Positions 9,686 through 41,534 of a stretch of 64,000 bases of DNA are shown piece by piece. The stretch is from Candidatus Nanoarchaeia archaeon. GTDB taxonomy: Archaea > Nanobdellota > Nanobdellia > SCGC-AAA011-G17 > GW2011-AR18. The DNA is taken from NCBI GenBank assembly GCA_035289605.1, contig DATDWR010000014.1, positions 13,798 to 77,797 on the forward strand, written 5' to 3'. The notes under the pieces were generated by a model. The model saw nothing but the letters and a program-made list of their open reading frames with translations, did no database searches and was not told where the DNA came from. Numbering within the stretch: position 1 is the first letter of the stretch; every line of letters begins with the position of its first letter. Position numbers and translations under genes: made by a program.

Positions 9686-10003
9686 TTATAGTTTTCTTTT
9701 TAATAGGTAAGAAGATATTTTGTGTTTTGTTGTGAATTCTTTCCATGAAACATATTTTAATTTTTCATTTTCTGGAAGAATACAAATGTTCATGTGGTTA
9801 TTGAATAGTTGTAAGAATTCTTTTCTACTCACTTCTGTGTTTGGGTTTTTTCATCCATGAGAATTTTTCGAGCAGTTTCTTTCCTGTGTATCCTTTGATG
9901 AGTTTTGCTACTTGCGGTCTTGTTCTTAGTCCTATGTCTACTAGCATGTGCACATGGTTGTTGTCGAATCCTAGTTCGCTTACTTTTATTCCGTACTTTT
10001 AGC
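9686..10003 (-). pseudogene. IS200/IS605-type Y1 transposase (TnpA-like) remnant, N-terminally truncated and frameshifted
   Basis: The minus-strand translation gives ...ELGFDNNHVHMLVDIGLRTRPQVAKLIKGYTGKKLLEKFSWMKKPKHRSE*. This matches the DHVHLL...lKG.s core of IS200 TnpA. The remainder continues in another frame (KEFLQLFNNHMNICILPENEKLKYVSWKEFTTKH). There is no N-terminal half and no start codon. Confidence 0.6.
9721..9853 (-). repeat. copy A of a ~133-nt dispersed repeat (3' end of the transposase remnant)
   Basis: By hand alignment it is roughly 80 percent identical to 28276-28409. Confidence 0.75.
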
Positions 10004-28231: not shown

Positions 28232-28393
28232 TTAAGACAAAAATTTTACTCTTTTTACTAATGAATTACTTATCTTGTGCTTTGTTATAAATTCTTTCCA
28301 TGAGACATATTTTAGTTTTTCTTGTTCCGGAAGTACGCAGATGTTTAAGTGGTTATTGAATAGTTGTAGGAATTCTTTTCTGTTTATTTTCAT
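28232..28393 (-). CDS. 53-aa ORF within repeat copy B (transposase C-terminus-like; may be non-functional)
   Basis: MKINRKEFLQLFNNHLNICVLPEQEKLKYVSWKEFITKHKISNSLVKRVKFLS. It is homologous to the out-of-frame tail of the 9.7-10.0 kb transposase remnant. Confidence 0.3.
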   Translation of the reverse strand: MKINRKEFLQLFNNHLNICVLPEQEKLKYVSWKEFITKHKISNSLVKRVKFLS

Positions 28394-28409
28394 GTTTGGA
28401 TTTTTTTCA
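28276..28409 (-). repeat. copy B of the ~133-nt dispersed repeat
   Basis: Roughly 80 percent identical to 9721-9853 by hand alignment. It lies 10 nt downstream of the RT stop. Confidence 0.75.
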
Positions 28410-28418
28410 ACAAATATA

Positions 28419-29929
28419 TTAAATTTTTTTAGAGCATTGTTCTCTCTGTTTTGTATTAAGAAAACATTTTCTGAAGCAGTATTCTTTTTTGTACCATTTA
28501 ACTACTGTTGAAATACTCTTCTTTTTGTTTTCATATTTTACGCTTGCTAATACGCAGTTTATTTCATTGTAAGTTATAGATTCATCTTTTATTCTTTCTT
28601 TTATATCTTTCAACTTTTCATTTTCATCTTTGATATTATTTAGAATTGTTATTATTTTATTTTTAGGGATTATTCTCCATATGCTTATCTGATTGTATTC
28701 TATTAAATTAGCAAGATGACTCCATACTGTTGATTCTTTAATGCCTCTTTGTTGCGCTATCTGTTTTATGCTTAATCCCTTCTTTAGCATTTGTAGTGTT
28801 TTTTGTGTTGTAAACTTGTAGTCTGCTGCTTCTATTTTCTTTAGGAAATTGTCATGTTTTTTAGGGTTTTTTATTTCAGTATTTGGTTCTACTGGGAAGT
28901 CTTTATTGAATTTCCTTGTTATTTGCCTTCTATATTTGTATGTGTCTGCATTAGAAACATATGCAGTCCATCCTTCAAATATTTCTATGACTTTTTCTCT
29001 TTCAACTGCGCCTTTTTCATATAATCCTTTTAACATTAAAAAATTTCTTTCAAACTTTTGCAGATTCTTTTTTCTTATTAGCTTGAATTCTGGAAATATT
29101 CTAAATCCTAAGAAATTTGTCCCGTTGCTTGACTGTATTATTTTAGATTTGTCTGGGTGTAATTCTAAGGCTAATTTTGTTTTTAAGAATTCGTCTATTT
29201 TATTTTTGTAATAATCTAACAATGTTTTATGCTTATGTAAGATTACGAAGTCATCCACATATCTTACGTAGTATTTTACTTTTAATTGCTCTTTTACATA
29301 GTGATCAAGTTCGTTAAGGTAGACATTTGCAAAGAATTGTGAAGTTAAGTTCCCTAAAGGCATCCCAATTTTTGCCGTCGCCCCCCCCCGCTGTGGTTTG
29401 CCAAGATTGTTTTTATTAACCAGATTAATCTTGAGTCATTTACTTTTTTCTTAATTAACGTGATTAATATTTCATGATTAACTGTTTCGAAATAGTGTTT
29501 AATATCTGCTTTCAAGACATAACAGTCTCTTGTGTAATTTTTTGAAACTTTTCTTTTGAAAAAGTCAAATCTCTGAACTGCTTTAAATGCTCCTTTTCTT
29601 GCTCTGTTAGCATAATTATCAAAAATGAAACTATTGTCAAAAATAGGTTCTATTATATTACATATCGCATGATGTATTACTCTATCTCTGAAGTCTGACT
29701 TGCTTATCTTTCTTGTTTTTGGATCTCTAAGGATGAAAGTTTGTAAGGGTCTTGGCTTGTAAGTGTGAAATATTATTTCAGATTGCAAATCTAAAAGATT
29801 TTGTTTTAAATCTTTTTCAAAGTCTATAACATATTGCTTCAATGTTTTTCTTTTTCTTGCTTTTTCATAAGCTAAGTAAAGATTATCGTAAGAAATAATT
29901 TGACTAAAAATATCAATTTCGTTATCCAT
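28419..29929 (-). CDS. DGR-type reverse transcriptase with C-terminal HTH extension, interrupted by a frameshift in a G9 tract
   Basis: Track ORFs 29354..29929 and 28419..29363 are the two halves. Motifs present: FRDRVIHHAI, ADIKHYFETVNH, LGNLTSQFFANVYLNELDHYV ([I/L]GxxxSQ, the DGR hallmark), YVRYVDDFVIL, LHPDKSKI and NFLGFRI. Adding one G at 29381-29389 gives ...HSGGGATAKIGMPLGNLTSQ... Confidence 0.85.
29381..29389 (-). other. G9 (plus strand C9) homopolymer at the RT frameshift site
   Basis: cgCCCCCCCCCgc in a strongly AT-rich genome. The frames of the two RT halves differ by +1 exactly here. Confidence 0.9.
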
Positions 29930-29949
29930 TTTATAATCAAGGTTATTTT

Positions 29950-30230
29950 AGTCCCAGCTTTTGTTGTCTTTGCTATTCCAACCACACGGCCGTAGAAGTT
30001 GTCTAGATTGTAGTTGCCATTCAAACCGTTGTTGTAGTAGCCAACAAACAGCACACGGCCAGCAGAGTAGCCCTTTCACTTTTTACTATTCACTGCCGCT
30101 TCACCATTTTTGGCGTTGCGACTGTATTTTATAGCAATAATATTGCCTTAGTGAAAAGGCGTGTAGCCCAAGCCACTCCAAAATTTAACTTACTACACCG
30201 ACGCATAGTAAATTAATAAGTGCTGGGACT
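29950..30230 (-). ncRNA. putative TR-containing DGR RNA bounded by a perfect 9-bp inverted repeat
   Basis: agtcccagc (29950-29958) and gctgggact (30222-30230) are exact reverse complements bracketing the TR plus spacer. Internal hairpins lie at 30190-30211 and 30134-30146, and 30070-30079 pairs with 30151-30160 (9 of 10). A TATA-like ttttatac element lies ~26 nt upstream. Confidence 0.45.
29971..30060 (-). repeat. DGR template repeat (TR)
   Basis: Non-coding copy of the VR. On the minus strand it reads ggccgtgtgctgtttgttggctactacaacaacggtttgaatggcaactacaatctagacaacttctacggccgtgtggttggaatagca, rich in AAY and TAC codons. Confidence 0.85.
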
Positions 30231-30262: not shown

Positions 30263-31084
30263 TTATTCAACTACTTTTACTCTGGAATCTCTAACAGGAA
30301 CATATAAAGTTCCATTATGTTCAAATGCTCTTTTCTCACTTAAAGCACCAGCTACTCTTGCTTCTAATTTAGGATCCAAATTTTTTGCGACACTATGCGC
30401 CTCTGGCGCAACCCCAACCACACGGCCGCAGAAGAAGTCTAGATAGAAGCCAATCAAACCGTCTTTGCAGCAGCCAACAAACAGCACACGGCCTCTGGCT
30501 TCGTCACCTAAATCATCTCTATGCCATACGCCGATTCTGTTGCCGTAAGCTTTCTTGTGAGCTGCTAGATATCTTTCTGCGTTTTCTTGTCCGCCTAAAA
30601 ATGGGACAGTTTGAGGATGTGCTAAAGCTTCGTCAACTTTTATAACACCGCTAGTTGATTTTCTTAAAGTGTCATGATCAACAACGAAAACTCTTCCGTT
30701 GCCTTCTTGGTCTAGTAAACTATAAAATTCATCTTGAGGCATTATTCCAGCACCATTAACTAATTTACCATCATCTATAGCTTTTGCTACATTTGCTGGA
30801 TTGCTGAAGTAATTGGGAACGTGACCATAAACAACTACTGGTTTTCCGTGTCTTGTCTTTCCTGTTGCTCTAATGCTTGGAGTTCCAAACCATACTTCCC
30901 ATAATCTGGATTCTTTATCAGCGTCTGTTCTTGCTTGTGCTAGTTCTGGCATGAATAAAGGATTGTAACCTGCATCTGCACAATCTTTAAAGGATCTGTC
31001 AACACTGTGGCTTCCTTCTGCATAAAATTCTCTAGCTTGAGAAACAACTTTTCTTACAATATCGATCACATTATTATATGCCAT
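30263..31084 (-). CDS. DGR variable (target) protein, cytoplasmic, unknown N-terminal domain
   Basis: 273 aa with no signal peptide or TM. The VR encodes GRVLFVGCCKDGLIGFYLDFFCGRVVGVA about 45 aa from the C-terminus. It is visibly more GC-rich than its surroundings. Confidence 0.85.
   Translation of the reverse strand: MAYNNVIDIVRKVVSQAREFYAEGSHSVDRSFKDCADAGYNPLFMPELAQARTDADKESRLWEVWFGTPSIRATGKTRHGKPVVVYGHVPNYFSNPANVAKAIDDGKLVNGAGIMPQDEFYSLLDQEGNGRVFVVDHDTLRKSTSGVIKVDEALAHPQTVPFLGGQENAERYLAAHKKAYGNRIGVWHRDDLGDEARGRVLFVGCCKDGLIGFYLDFFCGRVVGVAPEAHSVAKNLDPKLEARVAGALSEKRAFEHNGTLYVPVRDSRVKVVE
30397..30409 (-). other. GC hairpin at the 3' edge of VR1 (gcgcc-aga-ggcgc on the coding strand)
   Basis: 5-bp GC stem with a 3-nt loop. 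It is absent at the equivalent TR position. This is analogous to the target-recognition hairpins described downstream of VRs in other DGRs. Confidence 0.55.
30407..30493 (-). repeat. DGR variable repeat (VR1)
   Basis: An 87-nt match to the TR. Differences: 13 substitutions at TR adenines, 1 at a TR cytosine, and one 3-nt gap (hand alignment). Confidence 0.85.
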
Positions 31085-40226: not shown

Positions 40227-41534
40227 ATGCTCGATATTAATTTCATAAGAGAGAATCCTGAAGCTGTAAAAAAAAATATTGCAAAAAGGGGGGAGAAATA
40301 TAATCCTCAGCTAGTTGATCAGTTGTTAAAGTTGGATAAGGAGTGGAGAGAGCTTAGGGGAAGTGTTGATTCTTTGAGGCATGAAAGAAATAAATTGACT
40401 TTGCAGATTACAAAGTTATCCAAAGAAAAAAAAGATATATCAAAATTAGTTACAAAAGCTAAAAATTTGCCAGATGAGATAAAAAAATCTGAAGTAATAT
40501 TGGAAGATCTTAAGAAGAACATAGAATTAGTTCATTTGAGCATTCCTAACATGCTTGACAGTTCTGTTCCTTTGGGAAAAAATGATAAGGATAATGTTGT
40601 TAGAAAAAAATGGGGTAAAGTTTCTAAAATTAAGTTTGAATTGAAAAATCATGCAGAATTATTGGAAAACTTAGGATTGGCAGATTTTGATGCAGGAATA
40701 AGCAACTCTGGCCAGGGTTTTAATTATCTTAAGTCAGACTCTGCATTGCTTGATCTGGCTTTGCAGAGGTATGGTGTTGAATTTTTGCTGAAGAATGGTT
40801 TCATTCCAATCGTTCCGCCTATTCTTCTTAATAATAAAACTTTATTAGGAGCTCTTAATGGCTTAAAGGATTTTGAGGATGTTGTCTACAAAGTAGAAAA
40901 TGAAGACCTATATTTGATAGGCACTGCAGAGCACTCTTTGGTTACAATGCTGAAGAATAAAACTTTGAACAAGAAAGATCTTCCCATGAAATTTTTTGCA
41001 GTTACTCCTTGTTTCAGGAAAGAGATTGGAGGCCATGGTATTGATATGAAGTGGCTGTTTAGGATGCATCAGTTCAATAAGGTAGAGCAGGTAATTTTCG
41101 CAAAGCCTGAAGAGTCTATGAAAATGTTGAATTACATGCAGGGCTTGACAGAGAAATTTTTTCAGAGCTTGAAAATTCCTTATCGTATTGTCGAGATATG
41201 TTCTGGTGATTTAGGTGCAAAGTTCGCTAAGCAGTGGGATATAGAAGCATGGTTCCCGAGACAAAATGAATATAGGGAAGTCACTTCTGCAGGTTCATGC
41301 ACAGATTATCAGGCTGTTGCTTTGAATATTAAATATATAGACAAAGATAAAAAAGACTATGTGCATATTTTAAATAATACTATGGTTGCTACTTCAAGGG
41401 CGATGGTTGCTATTCTAGAAAACTATCAGCAGAAGGATGGTTCTGTTAAAGTTCCTGCTGTTTTAGTAAAATATATGAATGGGAAAAGATTTATTGGAGG
41501 TAGGAAAAATGAGAGAAAGTCTGGCAGACAATAA
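40227..41534 (+). CDS. serS: seryl-tRNA synthetase
   Basis: N-terminal coiled-coil arm and class II core (CFRKEIG, FNKVEQ, TSAGSCTDYQA, LNNTMVATSRAMVAILENYQ). Confidence 0.9.
   Translation: MLDINFIRENPEAVKKNIAKRGEKYNPQLVDQLLKLDKEWRELRGSVDSLRHERNKLTLQITKLSKEKKDISKLVTKAKNLPDEIKKSEVILEDLKKNIELVHLSIPNMLDSSVPLGKNDKDNVVRKKWGKVSKIKFELKNHAELLENLGLADFDAGISNSGQGFNYLKSDSALLDLALQRYGVEFLLKNGFIPIVPPILLNNKTLLGALNGLKDFEDVVYKVENEDLYLIGTAEHSLVTMLKNKTLNKKDLPMKFFAVTPCFRKEIGGHGIDMKWLFRMHQFNKVEQVIFAKPEESMKMLNYMQGLTEKFFQSLKIPYRIVEICSGDLGAKFAKQWDIEAWFPRQNEYREVTSAGSCTDYQAVALNIKYIDKDKKDYVHILNNTMVATSRAMVAILENYQQKDGSVKVPAVLVKYMNGKRFIGGRKNERKSGRQ

Follow-up and report, generated by a model that had tools for sequence, protein, structure and literature searches.

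A length-variable poly-G tract in the reverse transcriptase gene of an archaeal diversity-generating retroelement, a candidate phase-variation switch

The stretch of DNA analysed here, referred to as the window, comprises 64 kb of a contig from a Candidatus Nanoarchaeia archaeon. It carries a diversity-generating retroelement (DGR) made up of a reverse transcriptase (RT) gene in several pieces, a template repeat (TR) and a target gene with its variable repeat (VR). Coordinates are given in Table 1. The RT was identified by a Pfam RVT_1 match (E=3e-22) and by the presence of GMPLGNLTSQ and RYVDDF; its best solved relative is the 328-aa RT 8ub7 (E=9e-44). The features by which DGRs are recognized were found: RT motif 4 of the form [LIV]GxxxSQ together with YxDD, an adenine-biased TR/VR pair, and a VR at the 3′ end of the target accompanied by a hairpin. 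An intact RT and current mutagenic activity were not: the gene is spread over three frames and the VR of the window lineage is identical in 12 contigs, one strain with an SNP elsewhere included. No Pfam match to an avd or HRDC accessory gene was obtained in the four neighbouring ORFs scanned.

Table 1. Features of the DGR locus in the window
Feature	Coordinates	Strand	Remarks
DGR target gene	30263..31084	(-)	273 aa, without Pfam match; VR near 3′ end
Variable repeat (VR)	30414..30493	(-)	80 nt, inside target gene, 148 nt before stop
GC-rich inverted repeat GCGCC-AGA-GGCGC (GCGCCAGAGGCGC)	30397..30409	(-)	4 nt past VR; DGR-type hairpin, read from sequence
Template repeat (TR)	29978..30060	(-)	83 nt, immediately upstream of RT
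RT N-terminal ORF	29354..29929	(-)	191 aa, motifs 1-3; ends ...SGGGRRQKLGCL (stop); without catalytic YVDD
G9 homopolymer	29381..29389	(-), coding strand	three GGG codons of the upstream frame; OFF length
CGA directly 3′ of tract	29378..29380	(-)	within 100% G+C island GGGGGGGGGCGACGGC
RT middle ORF	28419..29363	(-)	314 aa, from Met of GMPLGNLTSQ (motif 4); YVDD, thumb, HTH_40; ends CSKKI (stop)
A7 run, second frameshift	28424..28430	(-)	one A in excess; A6 would restore ...CSKKFNIFVEKNP...
Displaced RT C-terminus coding region	28232..28423	(-)	~55 conserved residues, ..KEFLQLFNNHLNICVLPEQEKLKYVSWKEF..; same frame as N-terminal ORF

Comparison of VR with TR revealed that 10 of 11 substitutions fall at TR adenines, the remaining one being C>A, and that a single 3-nt indel lies beside AAC/TAC codons. 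Indels and changes at other bases are common in this group of DGRs (PMC5758913) and are equal in loci with in-frame and out-of-frame RT genes. The indel and the C>A mismatch were therefore dropped as signs of decay.

The two larger RT pieces lie, as the initial annotation had claimed, in frames offset at the G9 tract, and alignment to 8ub7 bears out its placement of the break between motifs 3 and 4. On the coding strand the junction reads CAC AGC GGG GGG GGG CGA CGG CAA AAA TTG GGA TGC CTT TAG. By frame arithmetic, G7 or G10 would join the halves; with one G added in silico the sequence continues as ...ANHSGGGATAKIGMPLGNLTSQ... and the product is 503 aa long. In the alignment to 8ub7 the tract corresponds to a 7-residue insertion, ‘SGGGATA’, just before motif 4. 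In the predicted model it encodes a tolerant loop, the GGG residues having a pLDDT <50 and the rest of the RT being modelled with confidence.

Such a tract was rightly singled out as unusual for an AT-rich genome. It is the only G/C run of at least 7 in the 64 kb, where base composition predicts ~0.007 runs of G9 or longer. In the genes of the window GGG accounts for 6.7% of Gly codons (P for three consecutive ones ~0.0003) and CGA 1.3% of Arg codons, so codon usage offers no explanation for the tract. The codons that follow it in the 0 frame, CGA CGG, are the two rarest for Arg.

The G9 tract is not the only lesion. A contiguous RT of ~503 aa had been predicted for G10; the arithmetic holds, but the prediction missed a second frameshift, at the A7 run, which is why the middle ORF ends where it does. 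The intact RT of this type is ~556 aa long, with an added HTH_40 domain and a helical C-terminal module with four Cys. The A7 run falls between the conserved C499 and C531, in a confidently predicted helix of this module. The two shifts are of opposite sign, and because of the second one G10 alone would not restore a full-length enzyme. Both shifts aside, all three pieces are open and align along the whole of P0001, the product of the closest intact homologue. One sample (L007) has a third lesion, a further 2-nt deletion at 28630. The window copy is silent (OFF) and is probably, or at least may be, beginning to decay.

The exact 191-aa product was recovered on 17 contigs and the 314-aa product on 14 (JGI 3300002502 and several ENA assemblies). 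At the DNA level the 17 contigs, from at least seven assemblies made with different assemblers, are 100% identical including G9. The A7 frameshift is likewise fixed in all contigs, since the exact 314-aa product requires it. These data bear on the proposal, also made in the initial annotation, that the split is a sequencing or assembly error, the true tract being G10 and the RT intact at this point. Long G runs are error-prone in sequencing, and one protein assembled at read level (P0126, ‘SGGGATAKIGMPLGN’) reads through; this last is weak evidence for G10, as P0126 is known only as a protein assembled from reads and has an aberrant junction. The recurrence of G9 across samples and assemblers speaks against an error. 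Moreover, tract length was reproduced in seven of nine other duplicate pairs, and where the two members of a pair disagree (two cases), the difference is 3 nt or two indels that compensate each other, rather than a random ±1. Finally, the 81 other ORFs of the window, which hold ~90 A/T runs of at least 7, contain no comparable split. We give the error explanation very little credence.

The tract is shared by related RT genes, where comparison of orthologues had been suggested as a check. The closest intact homologue (L001, encoding P0001; 74% identity, 556 aa) carries an in-frame G10 at the homologous site (AGC GAA GGG GGG GGG GCG ACG GCA). A pattern scan of metagenome contigs for a G run of at least 8 within 25 nt upstream of MPLGN retrieved >120 RT genes with G8-G12 at the equivalent site, from many sites and projects. 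Among the matches listed, 27 have G8, 26 G9, 42 G10, 22 G11 and four G12. RTs sharing the tract at the same codon position are only 50-75% identical, and in 713 kb of tract loci (33% GC) the sole other G/C run of at least 8 is another RT site. The tract belongs to a family of DGR RTs from DPANN archaea (Woese-, Pace- and Nanoarchaeota). The same scan of IMG/VR viral contigs gave 0 matches, and the tract-bearing RTs appear to be cellular rather than viral. In a less selected genome sample the tract is absent from 63 of 75 genes. In a neighbour-joining tree, RTs with and without the tract are intermingled, and remnants such as GGGGCGAA in tract-less genes favour, as far as sequence can tell, loss over repeated gain of the tract. 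Full-text searching of the literature turned up no description of it; it may have been mentioned before in Paul et al. 2017 (PMC5436926).

All three reading-frame phases occur. Among the 105 non-redundant genes listed, 25 are in frame (24%, a share conditional on the scan's requirement for G8 or longer), 46 carry one extra nucleotide (-1 nt would restore the frame) and 34 carry two (+1 nt). A phase check based on ORFs gave the same answer for 107 of 110 genes. In the less selected genome sample, which is biased towards intact genes, the G9-G11 alleles comprise four in-frame and two out-of-frame ones.

In integrity, constraint and TR/VR quality, out-of-frame genes do not differ from in-frame ones. 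Both halves are intact in 49 of 59 out-of-frame and 15 of 19 in-frame genes (p=0.74). In the downstream half, dN/dS is 0.095 for OFF-OFF pairs (n=51), 0.096 for ON-ON pairs and 0.094 for ON-OFF pairs. TR/VR mismatches at positions other than A average 1.14 in OFF and 1.36 in ON loci, with ~14 adenine mismatches in both. By these sequence measures, the out-of-frame genes of the family are not pseudogenes. OFF alleles are thus intact and under selection family-wide, and the window copy, with its A7 frameshift, conforms to this in part only. One relative, L037, combines the tract frameshift with an ordinary 1-nt deletion.

Tract length was seen to differ between near-identical genomes. L118 (G11) and L119 (G8) are identical across 4.4 kb except for the tract and one VR. 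Across 7.8 kb, the differences between L044 (G9) and L212 (G10) amount to one G and 12 VR mismatches; here both alleles are out of frame, so that the VR was rewritten between two OFF states, which fits a passage through an ON length and fits leaky expression as well. L039 has two RT copies on one contig, of which the one with G8 is in frame and the one with G11 is not. Tract length therefore varies at the level of the family, the window lineage itself having G9 in 17 of 17 contigs.

Reading phase was then set against VR variation. Multi-site variation was seen in six of eight in-frame lineages (L032, L047/L213, L042, L102, L118/119 and L215-217) and in none of the 10 out-of-frame lineages with a constant tract, namely the window lineage (12 contigs), L089 (10), L079 (33), L055, L011, L034, L112, L020, L015 and L014/73. 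The difference (6/8 versus 0/10) gives a Fisher p of 0.0015 and rests on 18 lineages, which are small numbers, and on indirect evidence; a minority of the variant target proteins in the clusters could be tied to an RT of known phase. Exceptions are P0155, a noisy read-level sequence with three VR differences in an OFF lineage, and single-residue variants in L034. P0201, considered as a VR variant in the OFF lineage L055, instead reflects a deletion (or collapse) of 86 nt, its tract being G8 as in the rest of the lineage. L116, which is OFF and has a highly diversified target cluster, was set aside as a test of the OFF state because its relatives L215-217 carry a different, in-frame RT cassette (81% identical).

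The reading we prefer, with a probability of about 0.6, is that G9 represents an allelic form of a poly-G tract, conserved and hypermutable, which acts as a slipped-strand phase-variation switch and gates DGR activity. Replication slippage would shift the tract by ±1 (sometimes 3) nt. At an in-frame length, full RT would be made and the VR of the neighbouring target gene rewritten from TR; at an out-of-frame length, only a 191-aa fragment lacking YVDD would be produced and the VR would stay frozen. The tract would thereby be a heritable, reversible ON/OFF switch on targeted hypermutation. The window lineage would have been OFF (G9) long enough for one VR to become fixed across the sampled contigs, and during this OFF period its RT would have gained the fixed A7 frameshift and, in one sample, the 2-nt deletion. 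We infer that the mechanism is DNA slippage, that the switch can revert over ecological time and that it is adaptive. A contingency switch had been put forward in the initial annotation, and the relatives strongly support it: the tract ranges from G8 to G12 in >120 genes and occupies all three phases, the ORFs are otherwise intact and under selection, and VR rewriting tracks the in-frame state. The proposal applies less well to the window copy itself, with its second frameshift. We also incline, if only slightly, to the broader view that a poly-G tract, hypermutable and under selection, controls an entire family of archaeal DGRs, most cells freezing a receptor variant and rare tract revertants launching bursts of diversification.

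OFF alleles might instead still yield full-length RT, if RNA polymerase or tRNA-Gly slips on G8-G12; phase would then be near neutral and the tract would tune the level of expression. Several observations are compatible with such recoding: in-frame alleles are not enriched (24%), out-of-frame genes are equally intact, constrained and clean in their TR/VR pairs, and L044/L212 had their VR rewritten with both alleles out of frame. A precedent exists in the frameshifted, apparently active DGR RT of Quimbyvirus (PMC8008677). In the window, in addition, the rare codons CGA CGG follow the run in the 0 frame. Rare (hungry) codons after a run can favour frameshifting. This fits the window, but across the family the frame of CGA is inconsistent relative to the upstream ORF, and hungry-codon frameshifting at CGA was discarded. 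Programmed frameshifting has a fixed direction; here translation would have to shift by +1 in 46 genes and by -1 in 34, a pattern that no programmed ribosomal frameshift shows. Nor was an excess of stimulatory RNA structure detected by minimum free energy of pseudoknot-free folds (z downstream -0.29 versus -0.19 and upstream -0.04 versus -0.31, in tract versus tract-less RT genes). A further contrast is between the frozen VRs of constant-tract OFF lineages, with up to 33 contigs, and the variation of in-frame ones. Transcriptional or ribosomal slippage, raised earlier as a route to expression, is thus disfavoured as the main one, and we regard recoding as unlikely.

The window RT could also be a plain pseudogene, in which the homopolymer is merely a mutational hotspot without regulatory meaning. 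Two fixed frameshifts, a third lesion in one sample and an invariant VR in 12 contigs agree with this, as does the double lesion of L037. Elsewhere in the window a relic of another RT C-terminus lies beside an IS200-like relic, which indicates that RT loss occurs in this genome. A dead RT, one of the options left by the initial annotation, is in these respects partly true of the window copy. What it accounts for is the present state of that copy and not the tract, which is kept at the same codon position in RTs of 50-75% identity, in 33% GC genomes otherwise without such runs. Most out-of-frame relatives carry no further lesion and experience strong purifying selection, and even in the window the three RT pieces are still open along the whole of P0001. 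As an overall explanation, simple gene death therefore seems improbable. Still another arrangement would be a split enzyme, with the fingers (motifs 1-3) and the palm/thumb made separately through termination-reinitiation at the Met of GMPLGN and then reassembled. The downstream ORF starts at an invariant Met in all genes, in the window there is a 10-nt overlap between the ATG region and the end of the upstream ORF (stop TAG at 29354-29356), and the G run might serve as a Shine-Dalgarno-like element. However, this Met is equally invariant in tract-less relatives; the upstream frame of phase-1 genes either ends long before this Met or extends far beyond it; a ribosome-binding site would usually lie closer to the ATG than the tract does (15-25 nt); and VRs are frozen in out-of-frame lineages. 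As far as we know, an RT divided between motifs 3 and 4 is without precedent, and we consider this arrangement highly improbable.

The switch reading finds its nearest parallel in the poly-G/C contingency loci of Campylobacter jejuni, Neisseria and Haemophilus. As in these, an intragenic G8-G12 run lies in an AT-rich genome, its length differs between near-identical strains and toggles the frame of an intact, selected gene, and many alleles are OFF. Unlike in these bacteria, the host is a DPANN archaeon and the switched gene encodes an enzyme of targeted hypermutation rather than a surface or restriction-modification function. Phasevarions (DNA methyltransferases) are comparable in placing a simple-sequence switch on an enzyme with many downstream phenotypes, a second-order effect, but theirs is reversible epigenetic regulation, whereas the effect here would be a permanent rewriting of coding sequence. 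In dnaX, IS elements and Shigella type III secretion genes, slippage or frameshifting likewise takes place at a homopolymer which fills the RNA-DNA hybrid at an ORF junction. Those cases have a fixed frame, mostly A/T runs and often a stimulatory structure; in the present family the phase is variable, the run is of G and no structure was detected.

Among DGRs, the locus resembles the canonical ones (Bordetella phage BPP-1 bRT; 8ub7) in its motif 4 LGNLTSQ, its YVDD, a TR beside the RT, a VR at the 3′ end of the target and a GC-rich hairpin. It departs from them by the ~556-aa RT with HTH_40 and the 4-Cys C-terminal module, by the 7-residue Gly-rich insertion encoded by the tract and by the order target-TR-RT. 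In the gut phage Quimbyvirus, the DGR RT consists of three overlapping ORFs; programmed translational frameshifts were proposed and the RT seemed active (Benler et al. 2021, PMC8008677). Both RTs lie in frames that need joining by shifts of opposite sign, and in both adenine-specific VR variation serves as the test of activity. Host and RT clade are different, however, and here the break falls at a length-variable homopolymer, relatives show both shift directions as well as in-frame alleles, and OFF lineages look inactive.

DGR regulation is largely an open question, and useful variants would be lost if mutagenic homing went unchecked. A phase-variable RT would be a population-level answer, a minority of cells diversifying and the majority locking in the result. 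We know of no description of simple-sequence-repeat phase variation in archaea. If the switch reading is true, archaea would have, to our knowledge, their first described simple-sequence contingency locus, and DGR activity its first known genetic regulator of this kind; simple-sequence phase variation, hitherto a hallmark of host-adapted bacteria, would extend to ultra-small archaea. In practical terms, DGR surveys that demand an unbroken RT ORF would drop some three quarters of such elements or mis-annotate them as fragments or pseudogenes, and so undercount DGRs in DPANN archaea. Groundwater metagenomes also offer a natural experiment in which tract phase can be compared with VR heterogeneity.

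In contrast to the genome-wide ‘phasome’ of bacteria, the tract is apparently found at one gene only, and its flank CGA(AC) is conserved at the nucleotide level. The C, G and A that follow the run are conserved at 92, 89 and 85%, respectively, across the RT family, irrespective of reading frame. A simple slippage switch leaves this unexplained, and the fact that G(n)CGA(AC) is conserved regardless of frame hints at a further function at the nucleic-acid level.

The run of nine G that the initial annotation had placed in the RT gene, between two ORFs in different frames, was confirmed in coordinates and frames on the minus strand, where its surroundings read ...AAC CAC AGC GGG GGG GGG CGA CGG CAA AAA TTG GGA TGC CTT TAG. 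As also proposed, one added G joins the 191-aa and 314-aa ORFs and yields ...ANHSGGGATAKIGMPLGNLTSQ.... In a domain search the fused protein matched RVT_1 (E=3e-22), which marks it as a reverse transcriptase, and also showed an HTH_40 domain. Among solved structures the best relative is 8ub7, a 328-aa RT (E=9e-44), and in the alignment to 8ub7 'SGGGATA' forms a 7-residue insertion immediately before motif 4.

Features of the DGR and its broken RT gene in the window
Feature	Coordinates	Strand	Remark
G9	29389..29381	minus	three GGG codons of upstream ORF
Upstream RT ORF	29929..29354	minus	191 aa; contains G9
Second RT ORF	29363..28419	minus	314 aa; first residue is the Met of GMPLGNLTSQ
A7 run, second frameshift	28424-28430	minus	A6 would bring back CSKKFNIF...
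Displaced RT C-terminal piece	28423..28232	minus	conserved ~55 residues, KEFLQLFNNHLNICVLPEQEKLKYVSWKEF; different frame from 314-aa ORF
TR	29978-30060	minus	DGR element
VR	30414-30493	minus	within target gene
DGR target gene	30263..31084	minus	houses VR
GC-rich hairpin	30397-30409	minus	DGR element

The claim that G10 restores a contiguous RT held only in part: the halves join, but because of the A7 frameshift G10 alone would yield a C-terminally truncated enzyme. RT homologues are ~556 aa long, with ~55 conserved residues past the ...CSKKI* end of the window gene. The N-terminal ORF and the C-terminal piece share a frame, the displacement being confined to the 314-codon middle; all three pieces remain open and align over the entire P0001, the intact RT of locus L001. 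In the P0001 model (mef11af2dcd6a), residues 473-555 are confidently predicted as a helical module downstream of HTH_40 (window equivalent 28232-28560), which in these RTs carries four Cys that hardly vary (C485, C489, C499, C531) and may form a metal site. The A7 frameshift, fixed in all contigs with the 314-aa product, lies between C499 and C531 in a confidently modelled helix. Locus L037 has the same net-zero frame pattern with another second lesion, a 1-nt deletion outside a homopolymer. In one sample (L007, position 4300, equivalent to window 28630) an extra 2-nt deletion, CAAAG to CAG, cuts the middle ORF to 245 aa; it is a third lesion, segregating within the population.

The element is a DGR: 10/11 substitutions between the window TR and VR fall at TR adenines, in addition to one 3-nt indel. 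Non-A changes and indels beside AAC codons are normal in this DGR group (PMC5758913), and these oddities are therefore no evidence of decay. The host belongs to the DPANN archaea; an archaeal ribosomal-protein operon is present in the window, with 33% GC and ~93% coding, and homologues carry names in Woese-, Pace- or Nanoarchaeota.

The tract was rightly called very unusual for such an AT-rich genome. It is the sole G or C run of at least 7 within 64 kb, where ~0.007 G runs of at least 9 are expected, GGG makes up 6.7% of Gly codons, and CGA and CGG, the codons after G9, are the rarest Arg codons. A sequencing or assembly error had been named, alongside a dead RT, as the simplest alternative. 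However, the exact 191-aa product occurs on 17 contigs and the 314-aa product on 14 (JGI 3300002502 plus six or more ENA assemblies), fetched DNA of matching contigs is 100% identical to the window, G9 included, and no split gene other than the RT is apparent in the window, though ~90 A/T runs of at least 7 are present, which makes an assembly error very unlikely.

The search for the tract in orthologous RTs was fruitful. The closest intact homologue, P0001 (74% identity), carries an in-frame G10 at this position. When metagenome contigs were scanned for the pattern of G8, a gap of 1-25 nt and ATGCCNYTNGGNAAYYTNAC, at least 120 RT genes with the tract were recovered; those among the matches listed originate from many sites and projects, with lengths of G8 (27), G9 (26), G10 (42), G11 (22) and G12 (4). 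The same scan of IMG/VR gave zero matches. Just one other G/C run of at least 8 was found in 713 kb of the matches listed, itself another RT site. Of 75 RT genes sampled from species-representative genomes, a source biased toward intact genes, 63 lack a run and six carry one of G9-G11 (four of them in frame and two not); some hold short remnants, e.g. GGGGCGAA. RTs with and without the tract intermingle in the tree. The tract is predicted to code for a flexible loop, its GGG residues having pLDDT below 50, and on this model 3-nt length changes and varied spacer readings (GGGRT.., GGGAN.. and GGGER.. in in-frame genes) would be tolerated because of it.

Phase was called from the N-terminal homology frame versus the frame of MPLGN in motif 4, and an ORF-based check was concordant in 107/110 cases. 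Among 105 non-redundant genes from the matches listed, conditional on a tract of at least G8, 25 are in frame (ON), 46 are shifted by +1 nt and 34 by +2 nt, an in-frame share slightly below one third (p=0.04). Out-of-frame (OFF) genes of this family are not decayed. Apart from the tract, neither half-ORF is disrupted in 49/59 out-of-frame versus 15/19 in-frame genes among the matches listed (p=0.74); dN/dS, computed on the 140 codons that follow the tract, is 0.095 in OFF-OFF (n=51), 0.096 in ON-ON and 0.094 in ON-OFF comparisons; and TR/VR pairs are equally clean in both states (~14 adenine mismatches, 1.1-1.4 others, 43-45% without others). One contig, L039 (Ga0208373_1002727), bears two related DGR RT genes with 93% identical flanks, one G8 in frame and the other G11 out of frame.

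Near-identical contigs and 90%-identity clusters of target proteins provided a natural experiment on VR rewriting.

VR variation in lineages of known tract phase
Lineage	Tract	VR observation
L047 / L213	G10, in frame	4 VR haplotypes among 5 members; DNA differences confined to VR
L042	in frame	3/3
L102	in frame	5/9
L032	in frame	2/6
L215-217	G9, in frame (396-aa RT)	6.8 kb identical apart from VR
L118 (G11) / L119 (G8)	in frame	over 4.4 kb, differences confined to tract and one VR
L024, L066	in frame	minor changes only
Window lineage	out of frame, constant	one VR in 12 contigs, including a strain with a SNP elsewhere
L089	out of frame, constant	one VR in 10 contigs
L079	out of frame, constant	one VR in 33 contigs
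L055, L011, L112, L020, L015, L014/73	out of frame, constant	one VR each
L034	out of frame, constant	single-residue variants only

Multi-site VR variation was found in 6/8 in-frame versus 0/10 out-of-frame constant-tract lineages (p=0.0015), a comparison of few lineages in which the RT state is known for a minority of cluster members. P0155, a noisy read-level member of an OFF lineage, has 3 VR differences. Between L116 and L215-L217, the target and upstream genes are 99.5% identical and the TR-RT cassette only 81%; the cassette seems to have been replaced via recombination between related genomes.

With a tract that recurs across the family and varies in length, and VR rewriting that tracks its phase in these few lineages, the best-supported reading is that the RT gene undergoes slipped-strand phase variation, the contingency switch suggested initially. 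In-frame lengths would permit active mutagenic homing; out-of-frame lengths would yield a fragment that lacks YVDD, and the VR would stay frozen. Transcriptional or ribosomal slippage, also raised at the outset, might act as a leak and is less likely to be the main route: shifts in both directions would be required, a stimulatory RNA structure was looked for and none was found, and VRs of OFF lineages are frozen. Particularly informative, together with L118/L119, is the pair L044 (G9) and L212 (G10), both out of frame: across 7.8 kb nothing but a single G and 12 mismatches in the VR separates the two, which calls for either transit through an ON length or leaky expression. Immediately 3' of the tract, the bases (C 92%, G 89%, A 85%, A 67%, C 56% in L011-L130; window 29376-29380) are conserved at the nucleotide level despite falling in each of the three frames with respect to motif 4, and CGA is kept although it is a very rare codon; a simple slippage switch does not account for this conservation. 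The spacer from tract to ATG in L011-L130 is T-poor, 14-17 or 23-25 nt long, and varies mostly by short A runs.

A dead RT, the remaining alternative, fits the window copy in part, with its tract OFF (G9), its VR frozen, a second lesion fixed and a third in one sample, but not its out-of-frame relatives, which are intact and constrained. Under phase variation, the window copy may be a switch kept OFF long enough for decay to begin.

Full-text searches turned up no account of phase variation or a poly-G tract in RT genes of DGRs, and RT frameshifts are not mentioned by Wu et al. 2018 or Roux et al. 2021. Benler et al. 2021 (PMC8008677) reported a gut-phage DGR RT spread over three overlapping ORFs, which like the window RT is broken into multiple frames, and stated that earlier predictions of DGR RTs had all been single ORFs.

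Several minor observations concern the window and its relatives. Window 28721-29952 (1232 nt, from the RT start codon to mid-gene, with G9) is 100% identical in L008 and L009, contigs of two other samples that both stop exactly at window 28721 and differ upstream (SLFN_AlbA_2 gene, no TR), which points either to a second genomic context for this stretch or to a boundary of recombination. A second RT C-terminus relic, KEFLQLFNNHMNICILPENEKLKYVSWKEF, with 80% nucleotide identity to 28232-28393, lies in intergenic minus-strand sequence (~9689-9850 and ~9830-10001) directly after an IS200-like Y1 transposase fragment (Pfam Y1_Tnp, E=2e-6), in a region now without any long ORF. In L141 (~340-440) the RT N-terminus is broken by a short insertion with two perfect GC-rich hairpins (CGCCCTTTAGGGCG, CCCCAACCTTTAGGTTGGGG) that looks like a miniature mobile element. 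Finally, a start-codon artefact or another frameshift may lie behind a 56-nt overlap (41479-41534), in a different frame, between ORF 40227..41534 and the next ORF on its strand; C6, A9 and G6 runs (40051, 40268 and 40288) are grouped around the start of ORF 40227..41534.
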